Source: Bacillota bacterium (GTDB lineage: Bacteria > Bacillota > JAAYKD01). From it: a stretch of DNA of 64,000 nucleotides. This document shows positions 26,716-44,277 of this stretch, one piece after another; positions within the stretch are counted from its first letter, which is position 1; every line of letters starts with the position of its first letter. The translations under genes and the position numbers were made by a program. The stretch lies in the NCBI GenBank assembly GCA_963666425.2, contig OY762825.2, positions 1,984,001-2,048,000 of the forward strand, written 5' to 3'. The notes below the pieces were generated by a model, which was not told where the DNA came from, ran no database searches, and was given only the letters and a program-made list of their open reading frames with translations.

Positions 26716-27169
26716 TAATTTGCATATGGAAATATCCATACCAACAGACGAGGATGGATATGTCCTTTTACAATGTCCCAATTGTGGCACCTATTTTAAA
26801 GCCACGCCACCTGATATCAAAGATGACGGTGTTTTGGAGTTATTTTGCCCAAGCTGTGGACTTGCGGGCGAAAGCTTTATAACCGAAGATATAATAGAAT
26901 TGGCTATGGCAATGGTGCAAAATAAAGCAATGGACATGATACATGATGAATTTAAGAAAATGGAACGCCAGTTTAAAAAGGGTCCAGTTACTTTTAAGGC
27001 TGGCAAGCCCCCTAAACACGAATCTGAAGATCCGATTCGCTCGGGCATTGAGGCTTTGGAAATAGTATCGTTTCCATGTTGCAAGCGTACTGCTAAGATA
27101 AAGCCAATTCTAAGAATGACCGGGTGTTACTGCCCGTTTTGTGGGGTGAAAAATTATGAATTTGAATAG
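26708..27169 (+). CDS. zinc-ribbon protein inserted in the hsd operon
   Basis: CPNC, CPSC, CC and CPFC motifs; overlaps hsdS stop. Confidence 0.8.
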   Translation: MSDNLHMEISIPTDEDGYVLLQCPNCGTYFKATPPDIKDDGVLELFCPSCGLAGESFITEDIIELAMAMVQNKAMDMIHDEFKKMERQFKKGPVTFKAGKPPKHESEDPIRSGIEALEIVSFPCCKRTAKIKPILRMTGCYCPFCGVKNYEFE

Positions 27170-27938: not shown

Positions 27939-27957
27939 TTTTAATGGAGGTGAGTTA

Positions 27958-30933
27958 GTGTATACAAACACAAAAGAATCTGGGCTTGAATCTTTGATCG
28001 TAAAGTGGCTTATCGAACAGAATGGCTATGAACAAGGCACAAACGAGGACTACAACCGCGAATATGCTGTTGATGAAACACGACTGTTGCGCTTTCTTTT
28101 CGAAACGCAAACGGACGAAATGGAGAAGCTCGGTGTTTTTTCTGACGGCCTAAAAAAAGCAAAGTTCCTTGACCGTTTGCGTGGCGAAATTGCCAAACGT
28201 GGTGTGATTGATGTGCTTCGCAATGGCATGAAGATGTACCCCGCCAACCTCATTATGTTTTACACTTCTCCTTCCCTGAAAAACACAAAGGCACGAGAGA
28301 TGTTTGAGAAGAACATTTTCAGTGTCACGCGCCAGCTCATGTACTCGAAAGATGCCACACGCATGGCACTTGATTTGTGCATTTTCATTAACGGTCTGCC
28401 GGTCATTACCGATGAGCTTAAAAACCAGTTAACCAAGCAGAATGTTGACGATGCCGTATATCAATATCAGCACGATCGCGACCCGAAAGAGCTCCTTTTT
28501 CAGTTTAAACGTTGCATGGTACACTTTGCTGCGGACGATGTCCGTTTAAGATTCTGTACAAAATTAGATGGCAAAGATTCGTATTTCCTTCCTTTTGATA
28601 AAGGCAACAATGATAATGCCGGGAATCCGCCCAATCCCAATGGATTGATGACAGATTATTTCTGGAAGCAGATTTTGACAAAACCCATGCTCGCCCATAT
28701 TATTGAAAACTACGCGCAGGTTGTCGAGGAAACTGATCCCGATACAAGGAGAAAGAGTTACAAACAGATATTTCCACGCTTTCATCAGTTGTCCGTCGTG
28801 GAAAACTTGCTCGCGGATGTACAACACAAAGGCATCGGGCAGCGGTATTTGATCCAACACAGCGCCGGAAGCGGTAAATCAAACTCCATCGCTTGGCTTG
28901 CCCACCAACTCATCGGAATTGAACGTGCTGACGGAAGCACAATTGTGGACACCGTTCTTGTCGTAACTGACCGTGTTCTTTTGGATAAACAAATACGTGA
29001 CACCATCAAACAATTTATGCAGGTATCGAATATTGTTGCATGGGCTGAACATTCCGGTAATCTCCGTGATGCCATCAACAACGGCAAGAAGATCATTATA
29101 ACCACTGTACATAAGTTCCCGGTCATCCTCGACAGCATCGGAAGCGAGCATAAAGGACGTAATTTTGCCATCATTATCGACGAGGCACACTCATCTCAAA
29201 GCGGTAGTATGTCGGCACAGATGAACATCGTTCTATCTGGTGAATATTCTGGAACAAATGAAGAGGACGATGAAGACCGCATCAACCGCCTGATTGAGGA
29301 ACGCATCAAGGGGAAAAGAATGCTGACAAACGCCAGTTATTTTGCATTCACAGCGACCCCCAAGAATAAAACTCTTGAAATGTTCGGTATTCCGTACCCC
29401 GAGGGTGACCAAGTCAAGCACAGACCGTTCCATGTTTATACCATGAAACAAGCCATTCAAGAGGGTTTCATTCTTGATGTGCTAAAATATTACACGCCGG
29501 TGGATAGCTATTTTAAGCTTATTAAAACCGCACAAGACGACCCCATGTTTGACAAGAATAAGGCGCAAAAGAAGCTGCGCTATTTCGTGGAAAGTGACGA
29601 GTTCACTATTTTGCAAAAAGCAACGCTGATGGTTGAACATTTCCACGAACAGGTTGTTGCGAAGAACAAAATCGGTGGCAAAGCCCGCGCTATGGTCGTG
29701 ACAAGTAGCATTAAGCGGTGTATAGATTATTACTATGCGTTAAACAAATGCCTGACAGACAGGCGCAGTCCATACAAAGCGATTATTACTTTTTCTGGTG
29801 AATGTGAATTCCGAAAGGGGACGACACTAACATCTGCCGGATTGAACGGATTTCCCGATAACGCGATAACAAAGGTATTTCGTACGGACCCATACCGTTT
29901 TCTCATTGTTGCGGATATGTTTCAGACGGGTTATGATGAACCTCTACTCCATACCATGTATGTAGACAAAATGCTATCCGACATAAAAGCTGTGCAAACG
30001 TTGTCCAGATTGAATCGCTCTTGTCCGAAGAAATACGATACTTTTGTGTTGGACTTTGCAAACAAAACCTCCGTTATTGAAGAAGCATTTTCGAATTATT
30101 ATCGGACGACGATTTTGTCCTCGGAAACAGATCCGAACAAGCTCTACGATATTGTCGCTATTATGGAGAACTACCAGATTTTCTCACAGGAGCATGTCGA
30201 TATGCTGGTTGGTTTGTATTTGAATGGTGCAGACCGCGACCGTCTCGATCCGATTCTCGACGCTTGTGTAGCACAGTATAAAGAGCTTGAGAACGAAGAT
30301 AAAATTCGATTCAAGGGTGCTGCGAAGTCTTTTGTGCGTACATATGGATTTCTCGGCGCAATTCTACCATATGGGAATGCTGATTGGGAAAAATTATCCA
30401 TATTCCTAAATTTCCTTGTCCCTAAATTGCCGTCGCCACAAGAGGACGACCTATCACGCGGAATCTTGGAAGCAATTGACCTTGACAGTTATCGTGTTGA
30501 GGCGCGCGAAGCCATCTCGTTGAGATCTGAAGACACCGATGCAGAAGTCGACCCTGTTCCTGCGGGGAGCGCTGGTGGCCTGGGTGACCCTGAGTTGGAC
30601 TTGCTCTCTTCGATCCTGATGGCGTTTAACGATATGTTTGGCAATATCGACTGGAACGACGCTGACAATGTACGTCGCCAGATCCTTGAAATCCCAACAA
30701 TGGTATCCAAGGATAAAAGATATCAGAATGCTATGAAGTATTCCGACAAGCAAAGCGCTCGTATGGAAAGTGAGCGTGCATTGCAGCAGGTTATCTTCAG
30801 CATTATGGCGGATAATATGGAATTGTTTAAGCAATTTCAAGATAATCCATCATTTAAGAAAGAGCTATCCGATTTGGTGTTTAACTTGACATATAACGAA
30901 AAAGGGGAGCCTTTCGAGAAGCCGCATGAATAA
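27958..30933 (+). CDS. hsdR: type I R-M restriction subunit
   Basis: ELKN nuclease motif, QHSAGSGKS, IIDEAHSSQ, FTATPK, QTGYDEP, QTLSRLNR; GTG start after SD GGAGG. Confidence 0.95.
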   Translation: MYTNTKESGLESLIVKWLIEQNGYEQGTNEDYNREYAVDETRLLRFLFETQTDEMEKLGVFSDGLKKAKFLDRLRGEIAKRGVIDVLRNGMKMYPANLIMFYTSPSLKNTKAREMFEKNIFSVTRQLMYSKDATRMALDLCIFINGLPVITDELKNQLTKQNVDDAVYQYQHDRDPKELLFQFKRCMVHFAADDVRLRFCTKLDGKDSYFLPFDKGNNDNAGNPPNPNGLMTDYFWKQILTKPMLAHIIENYAQVVEETDPDTRRKSYKQIFPRFHQLSVVENLLADVQHKGIGQRYLIQHSAGSGKSNSIAWLAHQLIGIERADGSTIVDTVLVVTDRVLLDKQIRDTIKQFMQVSNIVAWAEHSGNLRDAINNGKKIIITTVHKFPVILDSIGSEHKGRNFAIIIDEAHSSQSGSMSAQMNIVLSGEYSGTNEEDDEDRINRLIEERIKGKRMLTNASYFAFTATPKNKTLEMFGIPYPEGDQVKHRPFHVYTMKQAIQEGFILDVLKYYTPVDSYFKLIKTAQDDPMFDKNKAQKKLRYFVESDEFTILQKATLMVEHFHEQVVAKNKIGGKARAMVVTSSIKRCIDYYYALNKCLTDRRSPYKAIITFSGECEFRKGTTLTSAGLNGFPDNAITKVFRTDPYRFLIVADMFQTGYDEPLLHTMYVDKMLSDIKAVQTLSRLNRSCPKKYDTFVLDFANKTSVIEEAFSNYYRTTILSSETDPNKLYDIVAIMENYQIFSQEHVDMLVGLYLNGADRDRLDPILDACVAQYKELENEDKIRFKGAAKSFVRTYGFLGAILPYGNADWEKLSIFLNFLVPKLPSPQEDDLSRGILEAIDLDSYRVEAREAISLRSEDTDAEVDPVPAGSAGGLGDPELDLLSSILMAFNDMFGNIDWNDADNVRRQILEIPTMVSKDKRYQNAMKYSDKQSARMESERALQQVIFSIMADNMELFKQFQDNPSFKKELSDLVFNLTYNEKGEPFEKPHE

Positions 30934-31197: not shown

Positions 31198-32190
31198 ATG
31201 ACTACTTATGTTGAACTACCCGTTGCTGAGATTGAACTTGATAAGAGCAATCCACGTATTGCACTTGGCATATCTCGTTTTGACCCTATTACTAGTGATA
31301 TCATGGCGCTTCTTCTTGGGTCTACTTCTGAATCATGTGTGAGTTTACGGGAATCCGTCCGGGAAAATGGTGGCATTATTCACCCGATTGTAGTAAACAA
31401 ACGGGCCGATGGGACTTATGTAGTAATTGAGGGTAACACTCGTTTGCAGATATACAAGGATTTTATAAAAGCAGGAGAACCAGGTGATTGGACTACCATT
31501 CGTGCCATTGTATATAATTGCTTAGGTGACAATAAAATGCACTCGATTCGGTTGCAAGCTCATTTCATTGGTCCGCGAGAGTGGGACCCGTATTCTAAGG
31601 CAATGTATTTGAACTATCTTGCTAATATTGAGCATATGCCAATGAATACGTTAATTTCTTTTTGCGGTGGTAGCTCTAAGGCCTCAGAAATAAGGAATAT
31701 GATCGCAGCTTATAACGATATGGAAAAGTACTATCGTCCTTTATGCGATGATGATACCCAATTTGATATCCGCAAGTTTCACGGGTTTGTTGAGCTTCAG
31801 AATCGCAATATTATTGATTGCTTAATGATACATGGTTATAATAAGTCTGATTTTTCGCAATGGATGATTGATGATAGGTTTAGTACTTTGCAGGATGTAC
31901 GGCGTCTTCCTGATATTCTAAAAAGCAAGAAATCTTTAGAAACCTTTTTCAAAGAGAACAGCCAAGAAGCCAAAAAGATACTGGCTGTTGAAGAAATCAC
32001 ATCAGATAAACTAAAAGACGTTCCCTATGAATTACTGGCTCAAGAACTTGAGAAGCGAATGATAAAGATTGAATTGCATGAAGTTAACCATCTGCGTGAC
32101 GATTCGGAATATTCGGATAAATTGGACTACTTACAACGCGTGTATGATGAATTAAAGTTTGTACTTGATGAAGTGCATGGAGTGAATTAA
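31198..32190 (+). CDS. ParB/Srx-like N-terminal domain protein (copy 1)
   Basis: LDKSNPRI, LRESVRENGGIIHPIVV, YVVIEGNTRL. Confidence 0.8.
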   Translation: MTTYVELPVAEIELDKSNPRIALGISRFDPITSDIMALLLGSTSESCVSLRESVRENGGIIHPIVVNKRADGTYVVIEGNTRLQIYKDFIKAGEPGDWTTIRAIVYNCLGDNKMHSIRLQAHFIGPREWDPYSKAMYLNYLANIEHMPMNTLISFCGGSSKASEIRNMIAAYNDMEKYYRPLCDDDTQFDIRKFHGFVELQNRNIIDCLMIHGYNKSDFSQWMIDDRFSTLQDVRRLPDILKSKKSLETFFKENSQEAKKILAVEEITSDKLKDVPYELLAQELEKRMIKIELHEVNHLRDDSEYSDKLDYLQRVYDELKFVLDEVHGVN

Positions 32191-32192
32191 TA

Positions 32193-32600
32193 ATGAGTGA
32201 ATCTGCACAGCATCAACAACTTGTACAGCTTATCATTAGCGATGTAATATATACTGTCGGTCAAGATCACAATTGCTTTATATCTTCTGATGCTGTTGAC
32301 GAATTTTCACTTTCTCCTTATACCGAAGAAGGATTTCGACCTGATTTGTTCTATTTATTCAAAGATCATCTCATCATCGGTGAAGCTAAAACAAGTGATG
32401 ATATTGAAAGAATACATAGCAAGCAACAATATGAATCATTTATTCGTAAATGCTCACTTTTTGAAGGTAGTGCTATATTTATCGCTGCAGTACCTTGGAA
32501 GGATCACGCAACAATTCACAATATTCTTCAGAAAATCCGCAAGAAATATCCCGGTAATTACTTAATTAAGATATTGGATGGCATCGGGGGAACGATATGA
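32193..32600 (+). CDS. small protein with PD-(D/E)xK-like nuclease motif
   Basis: RPDLF...IIGEAKT. Confidence 0.6.
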   Translation: MSESAQHQQLVQLIISDVIYTVGQDHNCFISSDAVDEFSLSPYTEEGFRPDLFYLFKDHLIIGEAKTSDDIERIHSKQQYESFIRKCSLFEGSAIFIAAVPWKDHATIHNILQKIRKKYPGNYLIKILDGIGGTI

Positions 32601-34087
32601 AAAAAGTTCATTTGATAAAAGAGCCGAGTCTACTGGCAAAATATGATGCCTTTCCATATCAACGAGAAGCGTTTGAGGCTGTTAAGGACTTAGATTATGC
32701 GGCGATTTTTCATGAACAAGGTTTAGGAAAGACAAAAATCGCGATTGACCTATTGCTCTATTGGTTAGGTAAAACATCCATAGATACTGTACTGGTAGTA
32801 ACAAAAAAGCAACTCGTCCAAAACTGGATCCGAGAGTTCAAGATGCATACATCAATCGTGCCAACAGTATTGAATACAGATAAACAAAGTAATTACTATG
32901 TATTTTCTGGGCCGACAAGAGTTGTTGTTACTAATTTCGAACTGTTGATAGTAGAAAAAGAGCGTTTTAAACTATATTTAAACACGCGCAATGTAGCTAT
33001 CATAATTGATGAATCGGCCAAGTTGAAAAATCCTGATGCTAATTTAACAAAGGCCTATTTTGAATTAGCACCTCAATTTAAAAAAAAAGTAATTATGACC
33101 GGTACTCCCGTTGCTAATCGACCATATGACATTTGGTCGCAGATTTTCTTTCTAGATCAAGGCGCAAGCTTGGGAACGGATTTCAAGGCTTTTAAGCGGC
33201 AAACAGACTTAAATAATAAACTTTCGAATGACGAAGAATTGCAAAAGGGTTTTGAGAATATTGTCTCAAATATACATGATAAAATCAAGAATTTCTCTGT
33301 ACGCGAAATAAAAAGTAGCGGAATCATTGAATTGCCGGACAAAATCTATATTCGAGAAGAAACTGAATTTACTCCGGAGCAGGAAGAGCTATATGATAGA
33401 ATATGTGATGAGCTGAAAATTGAAGTTATAAAAGCAGGGCAGGTAATTGAAGATGACTCCACAGCATTAGTAAAACGGCTTTTGCGTTTAGTTCAAGTAA
33501 CTTCAAACCCATACCTTGTAGATGAGTCATATAAAGGGAAATCGGCAAAGGAAACTGTTTTAGATTCTTTATTACATCACATCGTTGATGCTGGTGAGAA
33601 ATGTATTGTATGGACTAATTTTATCGATAATGTTGAGCAGTTTACAAAGACTTACTCCAAATATGGGAGCGTCAAAATTCACGGCGGCATGAAAATTACT
33701 GATCGAAACCGCTCCGTTGAACGATTTCGGACAGAAGATTATAAGGTGATGTTTGCGACACCTGCATCAGCTAAAGAAGGCTTAACGTTGACAATGGCAA
33801 ATCATGTTATTTTCTATGATCGAGGTTTTAGTTTGGATGACTATCTACAAGCGCAAGATAGGATCCACCGAATATCCCAGAAAAAAACGTGTTATATCCA
33901 TAACATCATAATAAACAGAAGCATTGATGAATGGATTGATGTATTGTTAAAATCTAAGCAAAACGCTGCATCCTTAGCTCAGGGAGACATTTCGTTAAAG
34001 GAATATAGAAAAGTGGCAGATTACAGTTTTGGAGACTTAATCAAAACAATATTATCCACAAATCAGGAGGGCAAAGAATATGAGTAA
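32597..34087 (+). CDS. SNF2-family SF2 helicase/ATPase
   Basis: HEQGLGKT, IIDESA, MTGTP, EGLTLT.A, QAQDRIHRISQ. Confidence 0.9.
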   Translation: MKKVHLIKEPSLLAKYDAFPYQREAFEAVKDLDYAAIFHEQGLGKTKIAIDLLLYWLGKTSIDTVLVVTKKQLVQNWIREFKMHTSIVPTVLNTDKQSNYYVFSGPTRVVVTNFELLIVEKERFKLYLNTRNVAIIIDESAKLKNPDANLTKAYFELAPQFKKKVIMTGTPVANRPYDIWSQIFFLDQGASLGTDFKAFKRQTDLNNKLSNDEELQKGFENIVSNIHDKIKNFSVREIKSSGIIELPDKIYIREETEFTPEQEELYDRICDELKIEVIKAGQVIEDDSTALVKRLLRLVQVTSNPYLVDESYKGKSAKETVLDSLLHHIVDAGEKCIVWTNFIDNVEQFTKTYSKYGSVKIHGGMKITDRNRSVERFRTEDYKVMFATPASAKEGLTLTMANHVIFYDRGFSLDDYLQAQDRIHRISQKKTCYIHNIIINRSIDEWIDVLLKSKQNAASLAQGDISLKEYRKVADYSFGDLIKTILSTNQEGKEYE

Positions 34088-35072
34088 GATTACAATTGGG
34101 AAAACTGAATATGAATTTAAAGAGGAGCTTCTTGATCAGTGTCAACTCCTCTTCTATGAAGAGAATCCCCGTGTCTACTCTATTCTTAGGGCGAATGGTT
34201 CTATTCCAACGCAAAATGGAATAGAAGAACAGTTGACTTCTATGGATCATGTTAAGCAATTGCGTCTATCAATTGAGCAAAACGGAGGTTTGATAGATCC
34301 CTTAATGGTTGTGAAACGTAAAGGGGACTATGTTGTATTGGAAGGTAATAGCCGGCTTGCAGCTTATCGACTACTTGCGGTAAAAGATCCAATCAAATGG
34401 CAAAAAGTGAGAACACATTTACTTCCTGAAGAAATATCTGACAATGATATTTTTACGCTCTTAGGGCAATATCATCTTATCGGACGCAAAGATTGGAGTG
34501 TGTTTGAGCAAGCTGCATACCTATATCGGCAAAAAAAAACCTCACAATTAGAAAATGACATACTCGCGAAAAATGTAGGTTTGACTGAAAGCAAGGTATA
34601 TACATATATCAGCGTGTATACTTTTATGCTTGAGCATGATGATTTGCGACCGGATAGATGGAGCTATTATGAGGAATATTTAAAAAGCAGAGGAATTAGA
34701 AAATATCGTGATACCAATCCTGAAATAGATGAAGTGTTCGTAAAACAAGTAAAAAACAGAAAAATTAAACAAGCCATGGACGTACGTACTGTCCTTGGAG
34801 AAATTGCAAAATCTGGAGATAAAATTGCGAAGAAGATTATGCAGGGCATAATTAATGATGGAACGGACATTTACGATGGTCATGAAAAACTTAAAGTAAC
34901 TGGCAAAACAAGCAATGGTTATCAAAGAATCAAGAGATTCCATGAATTAGTAGCTGATGATGACTTTCAAAAAGTGTTAAAACTTGAGGCTACATCAAAT
35001 GCATCCATTGCTTTTGAACTCAAAAAGATACAAAAAGCTGTTGATAAATTACTAAGGGATATCTCCAAGTAA
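34080..35072 (+). CDS. ParB/Srx-like N-terminal domain protein (copy 2)
   Basis: FYEENPRV, LRLSIEQNGGLIDPLMV, YVVLEGNSRL. Confidence 0.8.
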   Translation: MSKITIGKTEYEFKEELLDQCQLLFYEENPRVYSILRANGSIPTQNGIEEQLTSMDHVKQLRLSIEQNGGLIDPLMVVKRKGDYVVLEGNSRLAAYRLLAVKDPIKWQKVRTHLLPEEISDNDIFTLLGQYHLIGRKDWSVFEQAAYLYRQKKTSQLENDILAKNVGLTESKVYTYISVYTFMLEHDDLRPDRWSYYEEYLKSRGIRKYRDTNPEIDEVFVKQVKNRKIKQAMDVRTVLGEIAKSGDKIAKKIMQGIINDGTDIYDGHEKLKVTGKTSNGYQRIKRFHELVADDDFQKVLKLEATSNASIAFELKKIQKAVDKLLRDISK

Positions 35073-35099: not shown

Positions 35100-37145
35100 A
35101 TGAGTAATATTTTGCTAATTGAACCGAATTATAAGAATAAGTATCCACCACTTGGACTTATGAAGATTTCGTATTTCCATAAACATTTTCTTCATGATTA
35201 TGTTCGCTTTACCAAAGGCGAGCTACCTCCAGCATTAGCAAATACAAAATGGGACCGTGTCTATGTGACTACACTCTTCACATTTGAATGGGCGAATACA
35301 ATTGCGTCAATCGAATACGCAAAGACATTGGTTGATTCTTTAGAGAAAATTACAATAGGTGGTATTGCTGCGACTATGCTACCCGATCAGATATACAAAG
35401 AAACTGGTATTCATCCAGTTTGTGGTTTATTAAATCATCCTGGTAAGTTAGGAATATTAGGCGATGAGTGCATAGACCAAATTGTTCCAGATTATTCAAT
35501 CCTCGATGATGTCGATTATGTATATCCATTTAGTGATGCCTACTTTCTCAGTGCAACCAAAGGGTGCGGTAACAAATGCGGCTTCTGCGCTGTCCAAACT
35601 CTTGAACCCACTTATGTTCCATACATAGATATCAAGGAAAAAATTACAGCTATTGACTGTGAGTTCGGGTCAAAAAGAGATCTCTTATTAATGGACAATA
35701 ATGTGTTACGTTCACCAGACTATGATCAGATCATTGATGATATTATTGTTGCTGGCTTTGGTAAAGGTGCGACTTATGTTAATCCAAGAACAAATAAAAC
35801 CGTTCGCAGATATGTTGATTTTAATCAGGGTTTAGATGCTATGTTCCTTAATGAAACAAAAGCAATGCGTCTTGGAGAAATAGCGCTAAAAACTGCCAGA
35901 GTAGCTTTTGATCATATTGAAGACCAGCAAACATATGAGAACGCACTGTGTTTGTGTGCGAAGTATGGTATTACAGAGTTATCAAATTATGTTTTGTACA
36001 ACAGCGAGAATTTTGGTGGAAAAGGTCACCAATATGCCGCAGATACTCCAGCTAATCTATATGATAGAATGCGTATTACCTTAGATATTAAAGAAGAAAT
36101 TAATAAAAAGCTTCTCGTAAGTGAACGCGTCAGCGCATTTTCTTTCCCGATGAGATACATACCTCTTTCTGCTCATGAACGAGGCTATATTGGCTCTCAA
36201 TGGAACGCCAAATTTTTGCGCGCAGTTCAATGTATGCTTATACCAACTCAGGGTAAGGGAGTCGGTAGTCGGTCTTTCTTCGAAGCGGATTTTGGCAAAG
36301 ACTCTGATGAATTCGTGCGCTTTTTATGTATGCCCGATAAGCTGATTGCTGCACGTGGTAATCTTAGCTCTGGAGGTCGTGGTAGAACAAGTGAAACAGA
36401 AGAAGAATTTAATACTCGTAAAAATGCTTGGGAAAAAAACCAACGGAAAATTGCTGAGTGGAATCGTCTATATGATCAACTCGGGGAAGAGAAAGAAAGC
36501 TTCATCACGTTTATAAGCGATAATGAATTTTTGCCTGAGAAATTTCTTGGCATTTCGTCGATAGCTCAAAAGAAACTATATTTATTCTACTTGACTACCC
36601 CACGTATTTTGTCTTTGTTTGGATTTCTAAGCCCAAACTCACCAACCTCTAGCATCGTTTATGACTATATAACCAATGAATTTCCAGCTATGTATCAAGA
36701 TGTGCTGATATTTGTTTGTGAAAGTGAAACGCAACAACAGTATATTTTTAGAAACTTTCTTTCTTTCTTTGGGAAGGAGGGTGTGTCCAATATCTTGCAT
36801 GTTCTCGCAGAAATCGATTTTTCTGCCGACAAACAATTACGGAAGTGGAATATCTTTTGCAAAAAAAAGGGTATATGGTTTATTGATTTTGAGCTTATCA
36901 GAGTATATAGAAGATACATCGATGTACATGTCTTCAATAAATCAGATCATCAAAGTGCAAAAAATGCGATATTAAGAATGGATATGCCCGAATTAGCTTC
37001 AATACTTGAGAGGAATTTTTTGAGCTTTAAAAATAACATTGCCTCAACTCTCAGCAATGAAAAAGGGCAGAAGATTTTAACAAATGCGACGAAATCGATA
37101 TTTAGTAATATCCAAATAAAGTTGTCGCGTGTTATGGAGGAATAA
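35100..37145 (+). CDS. radical SAM protein with cobalamin-binding-like N-terminal domain and long C-terminal extension
   Basis: YPPLGLMKIS, IGGIAAT, PDYSILD, TKGCGNKCGFC (CxxxCxxC), MDNN, VDFNQGLDA. Confidence 0.88.
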   Translation: MSNILLIEPNYKNKYPPLGLMKISYFHKHFLHDYVRFTKGELPPALANTKWDRVYVTTLFTFEWANTIASIEYAKTLVDSLEKITIGGIAATMLPDQIYKETGIHPVCGLLNHPGKLGILGDECIDQIVPDYSILDDVDYVYPFSDAYFLSATKGCGNKCGFCAVQTLEPTYVPYIDIKEKITAIDCEFGSKRDLLLMDNNVLRSPDYDQIIDDIIVAGFGKGATYVNPRTNKTVRRYVDFNQGLDAMFLNETKAMRLGEIALKTARVAFDHIEDQQTYENALCLCAKYGITELSNYVLYNSENFGGKGHQYAADTPANLYDRMRITLDIKEEINKKLLVSERVSAFSFPMRYIPLSAHERGYIGSQWNAKFLRAVQCMLIPTQGKGVGSRSFFEADFGKDSDEFVRFLCMPDKLIAARGNLSSGGRGRTSETEEEFNTRKNAWEKNQRKIAEWNRLYDQLGEEKESFITFISDNEFLPEKFLGISSIAQKKLYLFYLTTPRILSLFGFLSPNSPTSSIVYDYITNEFPAMYQDVLIFVCESETQQQYIFRNFLSFFGKEGVSNILHVLAEIDFSADKQLRKWNIFCKKKGIWFIDFELIRVYRRYIDVHVFNKSDHQSAKNAILRMDMPELASILERNFLSFKNNIASTLSNEKGQKILTNATKSIFSNIQIKLSRVMEE

Positions 37146-37146
37146 C

Positions 37147-38673
37147 ATGAGCAACATTGTAATCGGGAAACACACGCTAGAATCGCTTACTTCGGGAATG
37201 TATTTAGATCCATATGTTATTTTTCGTGAGTATATTCAAAATGCTGCAGATTCTATTGATGAAGCCATTAAATCTGGTATCCTGAAAAGCGGTGAAGATA
37301 AGGTAGAGATAAACCTTTCTCCTTCTGAGTGTAAGATAGCTATTCGTGATAATGGTGCTGGTATTTCATCACTTATTGCCGAGAAATCATTAATCAGTAT
37401 AGGCAACTCTAAAAAAGTTTCTGGCAGTTCACGAGGGTTTAGGGGGATAGGTAGATTGTCAGCCCTAAGTTATTGCACTAAGCTAACATTCGAAACAAGT
37501 GCTTATGGTGAAAAGAGTGGAACAAGAGTTATTTTCAATGCAAAAAAGCTATCTGAATTGCTTGCTTCAAATGAAAGAGATGATCTTTCGGCGATAGATG
37601 TATTACTCAATATATACAAGATGGAAACATTTGTTGAAAAGGAAAACTCACACTATTTCTGCGTTTGTTTAGAAGGTGTAGACGAGAAATCCAAATTAAA
37701 TGAATATGACGAAGTTATGTCTTATATTTCTCAAAATGTCCCAGTGCCATATGATCCAGATGGTTTCATTTTGGGGAAGGAAATTTACCGCCGACTAAAT
37801 CAGGAAAAACTCGCTATACACCAATATAATGTTTTTGTTACATATGGAAATAAAACAATATCAATATTTAAGCCTTATAAAGATGAATTTCTAGTTGATA
37901 AAGGCAAAAACTTAATTGATAAAATAACCGACATTAACATTATAAAAATCAAACAAGCTGATGGGTCCATTTTTGCCATTGGATGGATTGCGAAAACAAA
38001 CTACCTAGGTAGTATTTATGATAAAACAATCAAGGGAATACGGCTACGCAAGGGGAATATTCTTATCGGAGATAGTCAAACACTCAATGTTATTTTTAAA
38101 GAAGGTCGGTTTAATGGTTGGGCAATTGGCGAAATATTCGCGATTGATTCAAAGTTAATTCCAAATGCGCGGAGAGACAACCTGGAAAAAAATACTGCAT
38201 ATTTCAAGCTATTTGAGCAATTGACGCCGATAGCAAGTAGTATTACAAAGGAAATTAGATATGCATCGTTAAACAGAAGCATAGAATTATCAAATATATT
38301 AAACCAGTCTGAGCAAGTGGCAATGTTGGCAAATGATGCAATTCAGGAAGGTTTTAGCAGTTCTAAAAAAAGTGTGATTAAGCAAAGCATTACTAATATG
38401 CAATCGGTCATAGCCAATTCCAACCTGAATAGTGATACTGATGTTTATTATCAGGAAATTGCTTTTGAAGAACTTGATATGCTTATCGGAAAACTACAGG
38501 GGTTAACATCCTTTAAAGCAATTAATGCTATTAAGGGCTTGACAAAAACAGAAAAGAAAATTCTCGAAAGAGTATTCAATGTTATTCTTTTTATTGATAA
38601 AGATCATTCCGATGTAACAATTGATGCTATACTTGAAAGTTTCTCTACGCGTGATGATTCGTCTTTGGAATAA
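37147..38673 (+). CDS. GHKL ATPase (MORC/MutL/Hsp90-like, HATPase_c_3 type)
   Basis: FREYIQNAADS, IRDNGAG, GFRGIGRLS, IPNARRD; SD GGAGG before ATG 37147. Confidence 0.88.
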   Translation: MSNIVIGKHTLESLTSGMYLDPYVIFREYIQNAADSIDEAIKSGILKSGEDKVEINLSPSECKIAIRDNGAGISSLIAEKSLISIGNSKKVSGSSRGFRGIGRLSALSYCTKLTFETSAYGEKSGTRVIFNAKKLSELLASNERDDLSAIDVLLNIYKMETFVEKENSHYFCVCLEGVDEKSKLNEYDEVMSYISQNVPVPYDPDGFILGKEIYRRLNQEKLAIHQYNVFVTYGNKTISIFKPYKDEFLVDKGKNLIDKITDINIIKIKQADGSIFAIGWIAKTNYLGSIYDKTIKGIRLRKGNILIGDSQTLNVIFKEGRFNGWAIGEIFAIDSKLIPNARRDNLEKNTAYFKLFEQLTPIASSITKEIRYASLNRSIELSNILNQSEQVAMLANDAIQEGFSSSKKSVIKQSITNMQSVIANSNLNSDTDVYYQEIAFEELDMLIGKLQGLTSFKAINAIKGLTKTEKKILERVFNVILFIDKDHSDVTIDAILESFSTRDDSSLE

Positions 38674-38766: not shown

Positions 38767-40008
38767 GTGGACGACGATAAAAAGAAATATTATGAAAATG
38801 AATATTTCATGCTCAAAGATGCTCATTTTCAAACTTCTCAAAGGATTACCACTTTTTTTCAATATGCATTATTAATATTTTCAGCGCCAATCGCGTTACT
38901 GACGTCGGTTGAAATTGACCAATTGCTTCTTGGAATAGTGTTTGCATTCATAGGAGTTGTAGGTCTATTTGTCATGCTTTATCTTTCTCGACTCAGAGTC
39001 GAATCTTTATTGTACGCAAGAGGCATTAATAGAATTCGTAGTATACTCTACACTTCCGGTCTTCTTGGAAGGGGAATTTATGAGATACATAAAGGTAAAG
39101 TGTTGCTCGCTCAAGATAAAAAGCCAGAATACTCTGATTGGCAACAATTTGGATTTATAGTTACTGTATTAGGTCTCTTTGATTCATTTTATTTCGCATT
39201 TGGCATAAATAAAATCATCTCGTCTCCAGGCATTTATTGTGAATGGATTATAAGGCACTTATTACTTATAACAGTAGTTATTGGTTTTTTTTGGTTATTG
39301 GTACATTTTTTCTTGCATAACTGGTGTAGTGAAGTCAGTGAGTATGGTAGTGATTATTATAAGAGGATAATTGGCGTAGACATTGATGGAGTACTAAACA
39401 AGCACGAAAAACAATTCGTTAAAATATTCAATCAGATTTATAGAAAAAGAAAATCAATTACTGTATCAGATATTACCACTTTGCCTGTTTCAGAATCGGG
39501 TATTGTTAATCGAACGGAAGAACACATGATATTCAACACCCTTGAATATTGGAGCGATATGCCAGTAAATGATCATGTTTTCGAAAATTTAATAGAAGAA
39601 ATTCGAAATAAACGTGGTTATAAGATATATATTTTTACTTGGAGAGATTGGGAGATATGCCGGAATATAAAGGGTGAATCAGTTACTAGTTCCATTAACA
39701 AGCAGACAAGAAAATGGCTTAAAGACAATGAAATATTGTACAATAAGTTACTTTTTGAAAAAGGGAATGTTGATCGTCCAGTTTCGTTATTCAATGTGAA
39801 ATATAAAACGAGATATTACTATTCAAAAAAATATAAAATTAGATATTTTGTTGAAGACACAGCAGAAAATGCGATTAAATTGTCTCATATTTGTGAATAT
39901 GTATTTCTGATTAACCATCAGTATAACGGAAATATTGAATTACCGTACAATGTTGTTCGAGTCGATGGTTGGGATGATATTCTCTACTGGATTAAGAAAT
40001 TTGAGTAA
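38767..40008 (+). CDS. multi-TM protein fused to a HAD-family 5'(3')-nucleotidase-like domain
   Basis: About 4 TM helices, then IIGVDIDGVL (motif I), IFTWR, FVED, YN. Confidence 0.75.
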   Translation: MDDDKKKYYENEYFMLKDAHFQTSQRITTFFQYALLIFSAPIALLTSVEIDQLLLGIVFAFIGVVGLFVMLYLSRLRVESLLYARGINRIRSILYTSGLLGRGIYEIHKGKVLLAQDKKPEYSDWQQFGFIVTVLGLFDSFYFAFGINKIISSPGIYCEWIIRHLLLITVVIGFFWLLVHFFLHNWCSEVSEYGSDYYKRIIGVDIDGVLNKHEKQFVKIFNQIYRKRKSITVSDITTLPVSESGIVNRTEEHMIFNTLEYWSDMPVNDHVFENLIEEIRNKRGYKIYIFTWRDWEICRNIKGESVTSSINKQTRKWLKDNEILYNKLLFEKGNVDRPVSLFNVKYKTRYYYSKKYKIRYFVEDTAENAIKLSHICEYVFLINHQYNGNIELPYNVVRVDGWDDILYWIKKFE

Positions 40009-40403: not shown

Positions 40404-40955
40404 TGTAAATTACGAACCCTAAACATCACGCGCACGGACTAAAAACTCCAGTGAAACAGCATATTAATACCGGGCTCTCGGCGAAGTAATACCAGCCTAA
40501 CGGAAGAGAACTCAATTCTAGATACTTGATAAAAAATAAATCGAGTGGCATCATAATAATGCGTTAACTCATATACAGGATAGGGCAACGCTGAGGTGCG
40601 ACCTGAGTGGTATATGAGGTTTTGCGAGAGAGTGATGCCATGACGGTGTCACTCTTTTCTTTGCGTTTAAACGAGAAAACATCAGTATCACTCTCCTGGT
40701 AAAACCTAAGCGTTAAACCTTAGGGGTTCGGGGGCAACGCCCCCGGTAGTCAACTTTTACGAATCTATATCATCGAAACTTTTTAAGCCATGGCGTTCAT
40801 GCATAGATTTTATCCTGTTAATAATAAGACCAATAGAATGATACTTAAATAAAATGGTGCTCAGGTCCGTGATGGTGGAGCTATTTGACCGTGCACGTGG
40901 AATTCTTAAGGCGTAATCTACAGTAAACAACGGAAATTTGGAAAGGATGAAAACA

Positions 40956-41483
40956 ATGAGCTTTGAAGAGCAGGTTATGAGTGAGTATTTAAGTTTTGAT
41001 GCAATGAAGAATAATATTGAAACATTGCCTGATTGCCCGGGGAGTCTCATCATATTATTAAAAAATAAAAAAGTCTGTGATGCACTTTTCCCTAACGTTC
41101 AATTTCATTACTTACAAGGTTTGCCTATCATCTACGTCAGTATCACTAATCATGGGATATACGGTCGGTATAGGAATCATTTCCTTGGGACAGCCATATT
41201 CTCAACTTTAAGAAAAAGCATAGGAGCCTTGTTTCATTGGCACGATTACCGGGTGATTATGGCTGGCAATAGATACCATTTCGATGATTTACACGAAAGT
41301 GAATTAACCGAGTGGATGAAGAAGAATTTACTTTTCTTGTATAAGTGTGTTTTACCAGATGCCGATTTGGACATATGTAAACAATACCTTACCCAGGAGT
41401 TGAATCCACCGTTAAATATTAGCATGAATCATAATCCAGTAAATTCTCAATTTAGAGAAGAGCTAACAATGTTGAGAAGGTAA
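40956..41483 (+). CDS. GIY-YIG-like nuclease family protein (degenerate motif)
   Basis: LPDCPG, IIYVSI, RYRNHF, STLRKSIGAL, ELNPPLNI. Confidence 0.65.
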   Translation: MSFEEQVMSEYLSFDAMKNNIETLPDCPGSLIILLKNKKVCDALFPNVQFHYLQGLPIIYVSITNHGIYGRYRNHFLGTAIFSTLRKSIGALFHWHDYRVIMAGNRYHFDDLHESELTEWMKKNLLFLYKCVLPDADLDICKQYLTQELNPPLNISMNHNPVNSQFREELTMLRR

Positions 41484-41649: not shown

Positions 41650-42120
41650 TTAACTCATTTCACCTTCAATCACCAGACGAACCATATGGTCATCAATAAT
41701 CCGGTGTTTACCAGTTGCACCATACAGCAAACAATTGGTGCAGAGCTTGTTAATCAGGCGCGGGATACCGGTAGAATAAAGATAGATCTCCTGGACCGCC
41801 GCATCGGTAAAGAGATCCCGCTCCACTCCAGCACAGCGTAACTGGCTATGGATAAACGCGGCTGTTTCGGCTTTATCCAATGGCTGTAAGCGGCATAGAA
41901 TATCAATGCGCTGCCGGATGGCCGCAAAGGCTTTCAGCTCCAGCCGGTTCCATAATTCACTTTGACCTACCAAAATCAGAGCGAATAGCGAACAGCTGAT
42001 GCTCCGCCGCGTAGCGCAAGCGCCCCAGGGTTTCTTCCAGCATGCCGCTGGGGTAGAGTGACTGAGTCGTAATTTCTCGGGAAAACGGCGTTCTTTCGCA
42101 TTGGTAGAAGCTTTCATACA
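41650..42120 (-). pseudogene. ExeA-like transposition AAA ATPase, internally deleted/frameshifted
   Basis: LILVGQSEL, AIRQRI, TGIPRLINKLC present; Walker A region absent. Confidence 0.75.
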
Positions 42121-42594
42121 TGGCGGTCTTCTCCTAAATCACGAAAGGAAATGGCAGTCTTTTGTTGCTTTTCCCGTATTTGGTTTTTCAGCTTCGCCGC
42201 TGTCAGATACCGAGATTGAGCAGGCTGCTCCACTTTACCCGCAGGTAAGACAGGTCGGATAGCGGACCTTGAACCTATTTGTAACGGTTTAGCGGTAAAA
42301 CGCGGCAGGCCGTCGGCTTCTACCCAGAGCAGATCCGGGGTTTGGCTGTCGTAGAGTAGTGTGACTTTACGACCAACCAAGAGTAAGCCATACTCCAACT
42401 CGTATTTTTTACCGTTGAAGCTAATACAACCGGCTTTGTCTACTTTGCGTTGTTCTACCCGTAGAAAGGCTTCTGCCAAGCTTTCGCTGGCAATAAAGCG
42501 TAAGGGTTCGCTGTCTTGCCGGAAGGCCAAAGCCGGCGAAGTCTTACCTCCTAAACCACGGTGCGGCCGATTTTGGTAGCATTCCGCTAACCAA
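42114..42594 (-). pseudogene. Mu-like DDE transposase C-terminal fragment
   Basis: RPHRGLGG, RKVDKAGCISFNGKKYE; N-terminus missing. Confidence 0.75.
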
Positions 42595-42793
42595 ACCAGT
42601 CTATTTCTATCTCGTAACCGGGTTTGTGTTCAAGGTGCATTGTAGCCTTATTACGCTGCACATATTCGTAATAATGATGCCTAAACTGGGTATAGCCGTA
42701 TGGAATTTGTGTTTTGTCAAGAAGAAATCCCTGAAATTATCAAGGTAAATTCCCGGAAATAATCACGAGCAATCCCGAGAAAAATCATCGAGG

Positions 42794-43552
42794 TTATTTA
42801 ACAGATTGACGCATCAAAGCATGAGTCATCCGGTAGCTTTGGCCCTCAAAAATCAGAAGGTGACCATGGTGAACCAAACGGTCAATCATGGCAGCAGCCA
42901 TTTGCTCATCCGTGAAAATACCACCCCATTTGGAAAATTCGAGGTTCGTTGTGAGGATCAAGCTTTTACTCTCGTAGCTGTCAGCAACTACCCGAAAGAG
43001 CAATTGAGAACCTTCCTTATCAACCGGAATATAGCCCCATTCATCGAGAATCAGAAGATCCAGATTTATCAAATCACGCACCAAACGTTCCAGCGTGCCG
43101 GATCTGTGTGCCTCTCCCAGTTTTAAAACAAGTTCTGTCACTGTGAAGAAACGCACATTCATCCCCATCTCGCAGGCTTTGACACCCAAAGCAATGGCCA
43201 AGTGCGTTTTACCGATTCCTACCGGACCATAAAGAATCAAGTTTTTCTTTTCCGCAATAAAGCGGCAGCTTAGAAGTTCTTCTTTTGTTAGGGATGGCGG
43301 GAGGCGCATTACATTGAATTCATAATCGGCGAAACTTTTCAGGACTGGAAAGCAAGCTCGATTCAACTGTCTGGTTCGTCGGTTCCTTTCTCGCTTCAAA
43401 ATCTCCTCTTCAAGCACGTAAGCGAGGAACTCCTCTTGTTTTGGTGTTGCTTTTTGCTCACACAATTCCACCATTCGCTGCGAAAGAATCAGCTTTTTAC
43501 AACTAGCTGAAATGGAGTCGCGAGCCGCGCTGCGCGCCTTCGTGTTAAGCAT
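42794..43552 (-). CDS. istB: IS21 helper ATPase IstB (element A)
   Basis: GPVGIGKTH, LILDEWGY, TTNLEFSKW, DRLVHH. Confidence 0.92.
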   Translation of the reverse strand: MLNTKARSAARDSISASCKKLILSQRMVELCEQKATPKQEEFLAYVLEEEILKRERNRRTRQLNRACFPVLKSFADYEFNVMRLPPSLTKEELLSCRFIAEKKNLILYGPVGIGKTHLAIALGVKACEMGMNVRFFTVTELVLKLGEAHRSGTLERLVRDLINLDLLILDEWGYIPVDKEGSQLLFRVVADSYESKSLILTTNLEFSKWGGIFTDEQMAAAMIDRLVHHGHLLIFEGQSYRMTHALMRQSVK

Positions 43553-44277
43553 CGCGTTCACCCACCTGCAGAAGCTGGTCATAGGCAGTCAGATCGGGTC
43601 CTTTTTCCGGAGCGGTATGCAAGCCATAATTCATCATACGGGCAGCTAAGACAGCAGCATCGCAGAAATGGTGCCGATTCGTGCGAAATCCCTCCTCCAA
43701 AGCTTTTACTGCCGTATCAAAAGAATAAACCTTGCTCAATTCAGACAGGGTGCGCACCGTTTGCTTGAGATCTTCCCGGCAAAGAACATCCATATTGTCC
43801 CGCAAAGCAACCGGAATCATTTCACGCACACTGCTATTTTTCCAGGCGCCGACGTTCCTGGTCAAGGTTGCTAAGGTGGTGCGATAATCCAGGCTGTCCG
43901 TCCGTTCTTCACCAAATTTGCGGCTGTGGATGACAATCATCTCACCACGCTCGGCATAAATCTCTATGGTATGCGCTTTCACCCCGACCAAAAACTCGGT
44001 TCCACCGAATTCAGGGCAGGTAGAGTAGTAATGGCGGTCGTCCACTCTTACTTTGCCGTAACTGTCGGCATTGACGTAAATGAAACGGCAGACATTGGAC
44101 GGGTGTACCGGAAGTGATTTGAGCGCTTTGAGATCTTCTTCGAATAATTCATGAATGTATATGCTAATCTAAATGTTGACCAGTTTAGCACCGAATGCTA
44201 AACGAAAAGTTGACCACCTTGAGCCCCTTTCCTGTTATGATGTATTTGCGAGAAACATCAAGCAGGAGGAAAGGAAA

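Follow-up and report, generated by a model that had tools for sequence, protein, structure and literature searches.

The 681-residue protein encoded at positions 35100..37145 (+ strand, ATG start) of the window, the whole 64,000-nucleotide stretch of DNA analyzed here, belongs to a family of radical SAM enzymes that is real but unnamed and that probably marks or attacks DNA within an undescribed antiviral system. The invariant core of this system is the radical SAM enzyme together with an Hsp90-like GHKL ATPase, and the pairing of the two is obligate. This pair is a mobile core joined to exchangeable DNA-directed modules. The reading favored here, at a probability of roughly 0.45, is that the enzyme supplies the self-marking, DNA-modifying half of a defense system, so far undescribed, that resembles Dpd, Dnd, or DISARM. 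The system appears to be horizontally mobile, DNA-directed, and of the defense type, with the 681-residue protein as its putative catalytic subunit.

The Radical SAM Enzyme

Translation, alignment, and profile searches divide the enzyme into a B12-binding-like N-terminal domain (residues ~1–135), a radical SAM core, and a helical C-terminal region (residues ~430–681). The motifs on which the original prediction drew are all present in the 681-residue reading frame. PPLGLMKIS spans residues 16–24 and GGIAAT residues 87–92, giving the N-terminal domain the pattern LLIEPN...YPPLGLMKIS...GGIAAT, and CGNKCGFC (residues 156–163, nucleotides 35565–35588) contains the CxxxCxxC cluster motif, C156-x3-C160-x2-C163. 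The latter is conserved across the family and is not a chance motif: C156, C160, and C163 are invariant in all 37 sequences of the family alignment, in which the relatives are 35–72% identical to the window protein. The same alignment has an invariant N-terminal stretch composed of L5, L6, E8, P9, N10, Y11, K12, N13, K14, Y15, P16, and P17. No other cysteine is invariant or near-invariant in these 37 sequences; thus, the enzyme has no auxiliary cluster of the MiaB/RimO type, i.e., a second [4Fe-4S] cluster with three cysteines in the N-terminal domain. The approximately 250 extra C-terminal residues that had been proposed are real. Family-wide conservation extends to residue ~500; the final ~180 residues are common only to five other long sequences of the alignment.

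When searched alone, the window protein matches Pfam Radical_SAM (PF04055) at E 0.003, with 18.2 bits versus a gathering cutoff of 29.5. At E ≤ 0.1, this domain is found in 37/37 family members (best 3.6e-9), and it is present in 14–59% of the members of neighboring Atlas clusters. The B12-binding domain (PF02310) is detected at the same threshold in 17 of the 37 members (best 2.5e-5), the window protein itself having no match. The assignment to the radical SAM enzymes, with an N-terminal domain of B12-binding-like type, is thus supported; the protein belongs to no curated family and resides in a defense island.

An NCBIfam scan assigns the window protein to no family at E ≤ 0.01. The models nearest to its family are B12-type radical SAM enzymes, all with weak matches: rSAM_ladder_B12 (29/37 members, best 6.2e-8), the Sden_1168 P-methyltransferase (19/37), BchE (16/37), and MJ_0865 (14/37). 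None of the curated cutoffs for B12-radical SAM enzymes (TIGR04072, NF038361, TIGR02026, TIGR04014, TIGR03471, and TIGR04479, among others) is reached by the family; one member, for example, scores 19.7 bits versus 360. The P-methyltransferase near-matches raised the possibility of P-methylation of the DNA backbone, which was set aside on chemical grounds; P-methyltransferases act on P–H phosphinates and not on phosphodiesters. In PDB sequence searches with the enzyme and with the family profile, no match is stronger than E 0.15. At the E-value thresholds used, no PADLOC model matches the window enzyme or its relatives L012, L058, L085, and L081, and the relative L010 matches only PDC-M51A (E 0.0093). 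The proposal that the enzyme is not viperin-like agrees with the lack of any defense-system (PADLOC) match to it.

Cobalamin belongs to the physiology of this organism, as the genome harbors a riboswitch for it (82.6 bits). The enzyme may itself use cobalamin and perform methyl transfer chemistry.

The GHKL ATPase as a Constant Partner

The GHKL ATPase (514 residues, 37129..38673, + strand) is encoded directly downstream, in a gene that shares 17 nt with the radical SAM gene, and matches Pfam HATPase_c_3 above the cutoff (E 1.3e-8). In a PDB profile search, its family profile matches the N-terminal domains of HtpG, TRAP1, and Hsp90 (2.8e-13) over the first ~130 residues only. All 29 aligned GHKL sequences have the Bergerat-fold residues E34, N38, D74, G78, G103, G106, and G108. 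One relative carries ankyrin repeats fused to the GHKL domain.

The pairing was surveyed in 73 related loci with a whole radical SAM reading frame. A GHKL gene lies within 7 kb of the radical SAM gene in 71 of these and is directly adjacent in 65; in the two loci without one, the contig ends 138 and 523 nt after the radical SAM gene. The two proteins co-diverge, their pairwise distances being correlated at r = 0.926 for 61 pairs (highest value among 500 shuffles, 0.144), and one 1359-residue protein is a fusion of DGQHR, radical SAM, and GHKL domains. A DNA-clamp role for the ATPase is assumed here; its domain is nearer in sequence to Hsp90 than to MutL or MORC.

Operon and Neighborhood in the Window

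The accessory module of the window begins with a 330-residue ParB-like protein (31198..32190, + strand) that matches Pfam ParB_N at E 2.7e-4, which is below the cutoff, and the PADLOC models PD-Lambda-5_A (5.4e-9) and PDC-M38A (6.1e-8). Homologs occupy the same position in loci L003, L009, L081, and L097. It is followed by a small 135-residue protein (32193..32600, + strand) that has no Pfam, NCBIfam, or PADLOC match and is conserved inside the ParB–SNF2–ParB module. Homologs or same-sized genes stand between the first ParB-like gene and the SNF2 gene in L003 (49% identical), L009, L081 (139 residues), and L097 (136 residues). The SNF2-family helicase (496 residues, 32597..34087, + strand) is identified by Pfam SNF2-rel_dom (2.5e-29) and Helicase_C (7.2e-20) and matches the PADLOC models ZorD (3.8e-47), DpdE (1.8e-36), and, weakly, DrmD. 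A second 330-residue ParB-like protein (34080..35072, + strand; NCBIfam parB_part 3.5e-4; PADLOC PDC-M38A 4.6e-10), with a conserved GxxR motif (G89 and R92) in its alignment, is encoded immediately upstream of the radical SAM gene. The order of these last two genes recurs in L001, L009, and G264/L097, and in 2/401 genomes of the phylum sample.

The ParB-like, SNF2, radical SAM, and GHKL genes form one packed string, with overlaps of 4–17 nt or gaps of 2–27 nt. A type I restriction-modification system (HsdM, HsdS, and HsdR) is located nearby at 23330–30933. The restriction-like setting that had been described is therefore present, and Pfam, NCBIfam, and PADLOC scans of the neighborhood likewise bear out the claim that it contains no precursor-peptide or cofactor-pathway genes. 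The region is low in GC (0.33–0.44 versus ~0.5 in the flanks), and PDC-M14 genes and IS21 copies also lie beside it. A functional link to the type I genes was rejected, as homologs of HsdM, HsdS, and HsdR occur in 0/80 related loci.

Downstream of the GHKL gene is a membrane-anchored NT5C/HAD-like protein (413 residues, 38767..40008, + strand) with N-terminal hydrophobic helices, a C-terminal NT5C/HAD-like domain (Pfam NT5C E 0.0078, residues 200–242), and an IGVDIDGVLN motif. It has no PADLOC match, and its homologs are found in 0/80 related loci; it is thus a neighbor, not a conserved part, and was rejected as a component of the system. The original prediction had offered either a mark on nucleic acid or an antiviral nucleotide processed by this HAD enzyme. 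DNA is the best-supported target, since every partner module in the relatives is a DNA motor, a nuclease, or a ParB/DGQHR NTPase. However, processing by the HAD enzyme is unsupported, the GHKL ATPase being the constant partner instead.

By NCBIfam and PADLOC, the operon of the window itself encodes no DGQHR protein, ParB-like proteins standing in its place, and PADLOC detects neither DrmA nor DrmB in it. The TGT domain of DpdA is absent from every gene between 23 and 47 kb and from the relatives scanned.

Exchangeable Modules in Related Loci

Besides the ParB–small protein–SNF2–ParB module of the window type, the core is accompanied by several other modules. In one, a HerA protein (PDB 7f6d_B, E 3.2e-56) is paired with a NurA-like protein (E 0.02). 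A second consists of DrmA, DrmB, and a NERD/UvrD helicase (PADLOC 1.4e-166, 6.3e-57, and 6.5e-70, respectively), and a third of an XPB-like helicase (2.9e-20) and a Rad50-like ATPase (6.6e-9). Some relatives encode a PIN-like protein and a second GHKL protein. A RelA/SpoT-like gene follows the GHKL gene in L002. No orphan pair, i.e., one without motor or nuclease partners, is seen; nine loci have no assigned module, mostly with short contig flanks.

A cyclase-like 260-residue protein is the sole partner of the core in 14/73 loci, one of them mixed with NurA–HerA. Among its Atlas neighbors are a cluster automatically named guanylate cyclase (0.97) and a PF00211 cluster (0.88), and the cyclase-like reading, drawn from motifs and these neighbors, is only a lead. 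A ParB-like fold was rejected for this protein of the three-gene form (hhalign probability 0.4%), and its profile has no PDB match. The 335-residue partner of a convergent form also has no PDB match and shows only a weak match to the PP_RS20740 family.

DrmA and DrmB are encoded immediately upstream of the radical SAM–GHKL pair in the second copy of this genome and in L004, L005, L006, L030, L047, and G004. Neither a DNA methyltransferase nor a PLD-type DrmC is found by Pfam domain among reading frames of at least 100 residues in L004 or L006, so the pair fills the slot of the modification gene in these loci. In L047, a small class-I methyltransferase-fold gene lies nearby.

DGQHR proteins of the DndB/DpdB family are encoded immediately upstream of the radical SAM gene on plasmids of Rhizobium and Novosphingobium and in an Acidobacteriota MAG. 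These proteins score 142.5 and 117 bits against TIGR03187 (cutoff 58.85) and match PADLOC DpdB (8.4e-19). Such proteins occur in L081, L082, L042, and L002, and are fused to the radical SAM enzyme in P0121 and P0211.

Distribution and Mobility

The core comprises 560 clusters at 50% identity (E ≤ 1e-30). In a phylum-wide sample the family occurs in 9/401 genomes, and it is missing from a genome of the same genus; it is also found on conjugative plasmids and in a temperate phage. Among the loci and records examined, the core is seen in Bacillota, Bacteroidota, Planctomycetota, Acidobacteriota, Deferribacterota, Cloacimonadota, Mycoplasmatota, and Alphaproteobacteria. The genome of the window encodes a second radical SAM copy (L085), which is 50% identical to the first and lies in a DISARM-like setting with DrmA (1.8e-155) and DrmB (3.4e-52) but no DrmC or DrmM match in PADLOC. 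Two divergent copies in one genome are as expected for specificity-bearing systems of the restriction-modification type. PADLOC 2.0.0 has no model for the radical SAM–GHKL pair, and a full-text literature search, with most subscription journals outside its reach, found no description of it.

Proposed Mechanism and Alternatives

DNA would be the substrate of the enzyme, and the purpose self-marking rather than attack. The GHKL ATPase and the flanking ParB-type NTPases (DGQHR/DpdB-type in relatives) may load or hold the enzyme on DNA through nucleotide hydrolysis. The enzyme would reductively cleave SAM at its [4Fe-4S] cluster and mark the host's own DNA covalently, at a carbon of a base or sugar. 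This mark would probably be a methyl group delivered via the cobalamin-type N-terminal domain. The motor and nuclease module, SNF2 with the ParB-like proteins in the window, would then attack DNA that lacks the mark. Such a division of labor would parallel that of DpdA/DpdB with DpdD–K, of DndA–E with DndFGH, and of the DISARM methylase. It is a tentative and rather doubtful extension of this reading that a cobalamin-type radical SAM enzyme, brought to DNA by the GHKL ATPase and ParB/DGQHR NTPases, writes a new covalent mark on host DNA, such as a methyl group on an unactivated carbon of a base or sugar. The mark would serve as the self-signal of a large modular defense family that has exchanged its restriction half (NurA–HerA, DISARM DrmAB, XPB/Rad50-like, or SNF2/ParB) repeatedly.

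Several observations weigh against the self-marking reading. The system in the window has no DGQHR protein of its own, so that this link comes from relatives, and its enzyme has no Pfam B12-binding match at E ≤ 0.1. True restriction-modification systems commonly have orphan modification modules, whereas no orphan radical SAM–GHKL pair is seen. The loci in which the cyclase-like protein alone accompanies the core (14/73) fit signaling or effector logic better than modification-restriction. DrmC is missing from the DISARM-like loci as well, and the pair could therefore stand in for the nuclease and not the methylase; the methyltransferase-fold gene nearby in L047 and the closeness of the GHKL domain to Hsp90 rather than to MutL or MORC point in the same unfavorable direction.

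The alternative that survives best, although unlikely, is that the enzyme is an effector and not a marker. The GHKL ATPase would sense or clamp invader DNA, and the radical SAM enzyme would damage or block that DNA, for example through radical hydrogen abstraction that produces strand breaks, cross-links, or adducts blocking replication, while the motors and nucleases would feed it DNA or complete the job. In no case is the core seen apart from motors or nucleases, which is consistent with this role, as is the absence of the DrmC nuclease from the DISARM-like loci. Between architecture types, GHKL identity is 19–29% versus ~41% for the enzyme, so that the ATPase evolves much faster, like arms-race sensors, and both the cyclase-like three-gene form and the GHKL–ankyrin fusion suggest sensing or signaling. 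However, dedicated nucleases (NurA, NERD, PIN-like, and PLD) are already present in most architectures, and the highly conserved enzyme core with its constant active-site region fits a fixed chemistry on a universal substrate. The adjacent or fused DGQHR/DpdB-type proteins also argue for marking; in the characterized Dpd system, DpdB works on the modification side, its ATPase being needed for the insertion of preQ0 into DNA by DpdA (PMC10164549).

A protein or RNA substrate is improbable. The Hsp90-like ATPase would here present a client for the enzyme to modify, and chaperones of the Hsp90/HtpG type are indeed the best sequence matches of the GHKL domain, one relative of which carries ankyrin repeats. 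Precedents are the B12 radical SAM enzymes of the Mmp10 type, which methylate proteins, and the MiaB/RimO types, whose substrates are tRNA or ribosomal protein. The NCBIfam near-matches include the protein methylase MJ_0865 as well as RimO/MiaB, yet all of them are far under their cutoffs, and the absence of conserved cysteines outside CxxxCxxC excludes a MiaB/RimO-type auxiliary cluster. No gene emerged as a conserved client candidate, and the partners are enzymes that act on DNA.

Production of a small molecule is a still fainter prospect. The enzyme would convert a nucleotide or metabolite to an antiviral or signaling molecule in the manner of viperin or Ophion, possibly handled by the HAD-like protein. 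Radical SAM enzymes of pVip systems perform such chemistry, and Ophion, a defense system with a radical SAM component, is proposed to interfere with nucleic acids (10.1101/2025.09.30.679545). The nucleotidase-like gene after the GHKL gene in the window, the RelA/SpoT-like gene in L002, and the cyclase-like partner in 14 of the 73 loci are in keeping with this role. However, the HAD-like gene recurs in 0/80 related loci, no PADLOC model fits the enzyme, whose N-terminal domain is B12-like, DNA-motor partners dominate, and the DGQHR fusions point to DNA.

The least probable alternative is a DNA-repair or housekeeping module, in which a lyase-type radical SAM protein like spore photoproduct lyase would work with HerA–NurA and a MutL-like ATPase. 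HerA and NurA form a pair that resects DNA ends (solved complex 7f6d), and GHKL ATPases include MutL, to which matches are weak. Against this alternative stand the patchy distribution (9/401 genomes, absent from the same-genus genome), the occurrence on plasmids, in a temperate phage, and within islands of low GC, the swapping of partners among defense-type modules (DISARM genes and PLD helicases), and the two divergent copies in one genome.

Modification-based immunity is known to employ ordinary methyltransferases, sulfur insertion (Dnd/Ssp), and base exchange (Dpd). If the self-marking reading is true, the system would widen the chemistry of DNA epigenetics, most likely through a mark out of reach of ordinary methylases, and could give a new tool for site-directed DNA modification. 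Within the literature searched, it would be the first epigenetic DNA mark written by a radical SAM enzyme and used for immunity. Even if the enzyme is an effector, a compact two-gene core is defined across several phyla. The loci also constitute a natural experiment in which DISARM-like and HerA–NurA machines are coupled to different discrimination modules.

Comparison with Known Systems

Class B radical SAM enzymes (P-methyltransferases, BchE, HpnJ, the MCR glutamine C-methyltransferase MJ_0865, and the ladderane-lipid enzyme) share the arrangement of a B12-binding-like Rossmann domain followed by a CxxxCxxC core. In contrast, the present family has its own invariant N-terminal motif, EPNYKNKYPP, a long extra C-terminal region, and DNA enzymes as neighbors instead of a lipid, cofactor, or antibiotic pathway.

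Prokaryotic MORC and paraMORC systems also encode a GHKL ATPase with helicases and nucleases, whereas the ATPase domain described here is nearest to Hsp90/HtpG by sequence. Iyer, Abhiman, and Aravind (2008) reportedly described MORC/paraMORC-type GHKL ATPases encoded with helicases and nucleases in mobile operons resembling restriction-modification systems; a radical SAM partner is not known to be part of that work.

DISARM is composed of DrmA, DrmB, and DrmC with either DrmD/DrmMI or DrmE/DrmMII. The second copy in this genome and several relatives have DrmA and DrmB upstream of the pair, and the SNF2 helicase of the window weakly matches DrmD. However, L004 and L006 lack the methyltransferase and DrmC and carry a NERD/UvrD helicase and the radical SAM–GHKL pair instead, and the window copy has neither DrmA nor DrmB.

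Prokaryotic viperins, and also Ophion, in which OpnA has PHP and PRTase partners, likewise bring radical SAM chemistry to anti-phage defense (10.1101/2025.09.30.679545). In contrast to these, the family has a B12-like N-terminal domain, matches no PADLOC model, and has a GHKL ATPase and DNA motors as partners where those systems have kinases, PHP, or PRTase.

Dnd/Ssp phosphorothioation systems combine a ParB-superfamily/DGQHR protein (DndB) with an iron–sulfur enzyme acting on DNA and have swappable restriction modules (PMC10853773). No homologs of DndA, DndC, DndD, or DndE are seen in the family loci, and DndC is a PP-loop enzyme outside the radical SAM superfamily (PMC10853773).

Dpd, the 7-deazaguanine DNA modification-restriction system, differs in that no DpdA or DpdC is seen, radical SAM and GHKL proteins being in their place, and in that the window operon has ParB-like proteins and no DGQHR protein. 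The likeness lies in the architecture: in relatives, a DGQHR/DpdB-type NTPase is beside or fused to the catalytic enzyme, the SNF2 helicase of the window matches DpdE, and the locus is a multigene mobile island.

Sequence and Family of the Radical SAM Enzyme

The enzyme is encoded on the forward strand at 35100–37145, an uninterrupted frame of 681 codons with an ATG start, and its translation harbors the motifs PPLGLMKIS (residues 16–24), GGIAAT (87–92), and CGNKCGFC (156–163). In a search against 5.8 billion proteins, 6660 of the 8000 scored candidates matched at E ≤ 0.001; the top relatives are 70–74% identical over the full length and nearly all without a name. Across an alignment of 37 family members (35–72% identical to the window protein), all three CxxxCxxC cysteines are invariant, and no further conserved cysteine is present. 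Also invariant are an N-terminal block, LLxEPNYKNKYPPxGLMK, and motifs including DFNQGxD, RxAFD, SNYxLxN, and SFPM.

The window protein scores 18.2 bits against Pfam Radical_SAM, under the cut-off of 29.5, and has no match in the NCBIfam or PADLOC scans. Family-wide, Radical_SAM is matched by 37/37 members at E ≤ 0.1 (best 3.6e-9) and the B12-binding domain by 17/37 at the same threshold (best 2.5e-5). In NCBIfam, the closest models belong to B12-type radical SAM families and to MiaB/RimO, every match being weak, and in a protein-language-model atlas the window protein falls among unnamed radical SAM clusters. The original prediction, a radical SAM protein with a B12-binding-like N-terminal domain, is confirmed at the sequence level by the invariant cysteines and the family-wide matches, as is the long C-terminal region; the protein falls outside any curated family.

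The distribution of the family is patchy. In an evenly drawn phylum sample, 9 of the 401 genomes carry it (E ≤ 1e-30), and the ParB2 type is in two of the 401. Within the class, it is present in 2 of 10 genomes, and the same-genus genome lacks it. A set of 1.84 billion 50%-identity representatives contains 560 matches at E ≤ 1e-30 and, at the looser threshold of E ≤ 1e-3, 3367. Fifteen plasmid records carry the family, seven of them predicted conjugative. The temperate Marinitoga camini virus 1 encodes a 360-aa relative (28% identical, E 8e-35; L083, 7001–10827) in convergent orientation to genes annotated as HerA and NurA-type, and no GHKL gene is annotated in the 15-kb region covered. A distant 305-aa relative stands beside DNA methyltransferase and PAPS-reductase genes in a Bacteroides LoVEphage.

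A Constant GHKL ATPase Partner

The gene adjoining the enzyme, with a 17-nt overlap, encodes a GHKL ATPase (37129–38673; HATPase_c_3, E 1.3e-8). Conservation of this pair was assessed in the best 80 of 307 confirmed matches, a set biased towards relatives of the window protein because it was retrieved by peptide patterns from the query. Of the 73 loci with a complete radical SAM frame, 71 have a GHKL gene no more than 7 kb away, and in 65 it is the immediate neighbor; the two that have none stop 138 and 523 nt past the radical SAM gene. The enzyme and the ATPase show correlated pairwise distances (r = 0.926 over 61 pairs); none of 500 shuffles exceeded 0.144. The enzyme evolves more slowly, with about 41% identity between architecture types compared with 19–29% for the ATPase. 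The Bergerat motifs are invariant in the family alignment, and in the PDB the GHKL profile aligns with HtpG/TRAP1/Hsp90 over the N-domain only (2.8e-13). One relative of the ATPase, P0273 (1077 aa), is 38% identical across 98% of the query and has Pfam ankyrin-repeat domains, a hint that the family may engage in protein–protein recognition.

Variable Partner Modules

Clustering and annotation of the neighboring genes yielded six recurrent architectures. Type A (38 loci plus one mixed) consists of NurA-like, HerA, GHKL, and radical SAM genes; its HerA profile matches PDB 7f6d_B at 3.2e-56, and its NurA-like protein weakly matches NurA of the 7f6d complex (E 0.02). In type B (13 loci plus the mixed A/B locus), the sole extra partner is a 260-aa protein (L010:7593–8378 and 13 similar genes) with FIDxLGF, GQTSDS, and FRGGIAKG motifs. 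It has no match in Pfam, PDB, or NCBIfam, its atlas neighbors are auto-named guanylate cyclase (score 0.97), and a class III cyclase-like palm, read from the motifs, is offered as a lead only. Type C (five loci) combines DrmA (PADLOC, 1.4e-166), DrmB (6.3e-57), and a NERD/UvrD helicase with the pair. Type D, in which a ParB-like protein, a small protein, SNF2, and a second ParB-like protein accompany the pair, is found in the window, three loci, and genome G264, and partly in L001. Type E (four loci) adds a 335-aa protein, and type F (three phylum-sample genomes) a 1150-aa protein, an XPB-like helicase (2.9e-20), a Rad50-like ATPase (6.6e-9), and a small protein. The module is unassignable in nine loci, mostly with short contig flanks. 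On a quick, non-final maximum-likelihood tree of the enzyme, the labels cluster strongly (9 changes versus a shuffled mean of 28.1), and the window protein groups with types C, D, and F, the 670–690-aa forms (SH-aLRT 100).

The source genome holds a second pair (G000:C1:1424000–1443999, minus strand, about 8872–19353), whose radical SAM protein is 670 aa and 50% identical. It is preceded by DrmA, DrmB, and a NERD/UvrD helicase in a DISARM-like arrangement and adjoins PDC-S01 and a mad3/mad8-like ATPase.

Island Setting

GC content around the enzyme is low, 0.33–0.44 versus about 0.5 in the flanks. The island is bordered by housekeeping genes. A type I R-M system lies upstream, with PDC-M14 candidate-system genes (26645–27938; PADLOC, A 2.5e-60, B 7e-113) nested between HsdS and HsdR. 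Downstream are a GIY-YIG_2 nuclease gene (40938–41483) and two IS21-type elements (42114–46508), the first broken and the second intact (IstB 2.1e-67 and 4.4e-74, plus Mu-transposase C-terminal fragments); these insertions may cut the island short downstream of the GHKL gene. Beyond these, two more genes of defence type encode a protein combining TPR and HEPN_LA2681 (51620–52993; 6.2e-17) and a protein with a CAP12/Pycsar-type TIR domain (58528–59907; 5.4e-39). At 55128–57754 and again at 60295–62832, a 185-aa frame precedes a 430-aa DJ-1/PfpI and metallo-beta-lactamase protein, each followed by a GNAT gene, an apparent duplication judged by frame sizes and Pfam matches.

Association with DGQHR Proteins

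On a Rhizobium plasmid, the gene order is ParB-like, small protein, SNF2, ParB, DGQHR, radical SAM, GHKL, PIN-like, and second GHKL; Novosphingobium pNL1 has the order PIN-like, ATPase, DGQHR, radical SAM, and GHKL. The two DGQHR proteins score 142.5 and 117 bits against TIGR03187 (cut-off 58.85), match DpdB models (8.4e-19 in PADLOC), and are of the DndB/DpdB family. According to PMC10164549, preQ0 insertion into DNA by DpdA needs the DpdB ATPase, and PMC10853773 describes the role of DndB as under debate. The DGQHR–radical SAM order recurs in one Acidobacteriota locus. In L002, the closest relative, a gene for such a protein is located two genes downstream. No DGQHR protein is encoded in the operon of the window itself. 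Two proteins fuse these domains, P0121 (1359 aa; DGQHR, radical SAM, and GHKL) and P0211 (791 aa; DGQHR-like and radical SAM), and may be artefacts, since P0121 is one metagenomic sequence and P0211 represents one 50%-identity cluster. Beside the trio of DGQHR, radical SAM, and GHKL genes, the two alphaproteobacterial plasmids (L081, 12322–15843; L082, 4078–7631) carry a PIN-like protein and a second Hsp90-like GHKL ATPase, neither of which matches any PADLOC system.

Candidate Functions

Every partner module consists of DNA motors, nucleases, or ParB-superfamily NTPases; therefore, DNA is most likely the arena of the enzyme. DNA modification for self-marking is favored by the DGQHR adjacency and fusions, by two divergent copies in one genome, and by the pair's place in DISARM-like loci where no DNA methyltransferase was found (none among frames of at least 100 aa in L004 and L006; in L047, a small gene of the class-I methyltransferase fold is nearby). 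Against it stand the failure to see an orphan pair, the absence of DrmC, too, from the DISARM-like loci, and the three-gene cyclase-like form, which suggests sensing or signalling. Weighing these points therefore gives self-marking a probability of roughly 45%. An effector acting on invader DNA is a distinctly less probable second. A protein or RNA substrate is improbable. Slightly more doubtful still is a small-molecule product, which the original prediction had perhaps processed by the neighboring HAD enzyme. That link fails because the membrane-anchored NT5C/HAD-like protein (38767–40008; 413 aa, with several hydrophobic helices at the N-terminus and a DIDGV motif in its C-terminal NT5C/HAD-like domain) has a homologue in none of the 80 related loci; it also lacks a PADLOC match and may be an independent island gene, e.g., a membrane-bound deoxynucleotidase. 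A repair role is very unlikely.

Comparison with Known Systems

The enzyme is not represented among the models of PADLOC 2.0.0, and no description of a radical SAM and GHKL pair was found in full-text searches of a collection that lacks most subscription journals. Ophion (10.1101/2025.09.30.679545) is a different three-gene set. The enzyme scores under every cut-off of the curated B12-radical SAM families and, in the 37-member alignment, lacks the auxiliary-cluster cysteines of MiaB/RimO. The system differs from Dpd in having no TGT, from Dnd/Ssp in having no Dnd enzymes, and from DISARM in having neither the methylase nor DrmC. While a member of none of these three, it works most like them.
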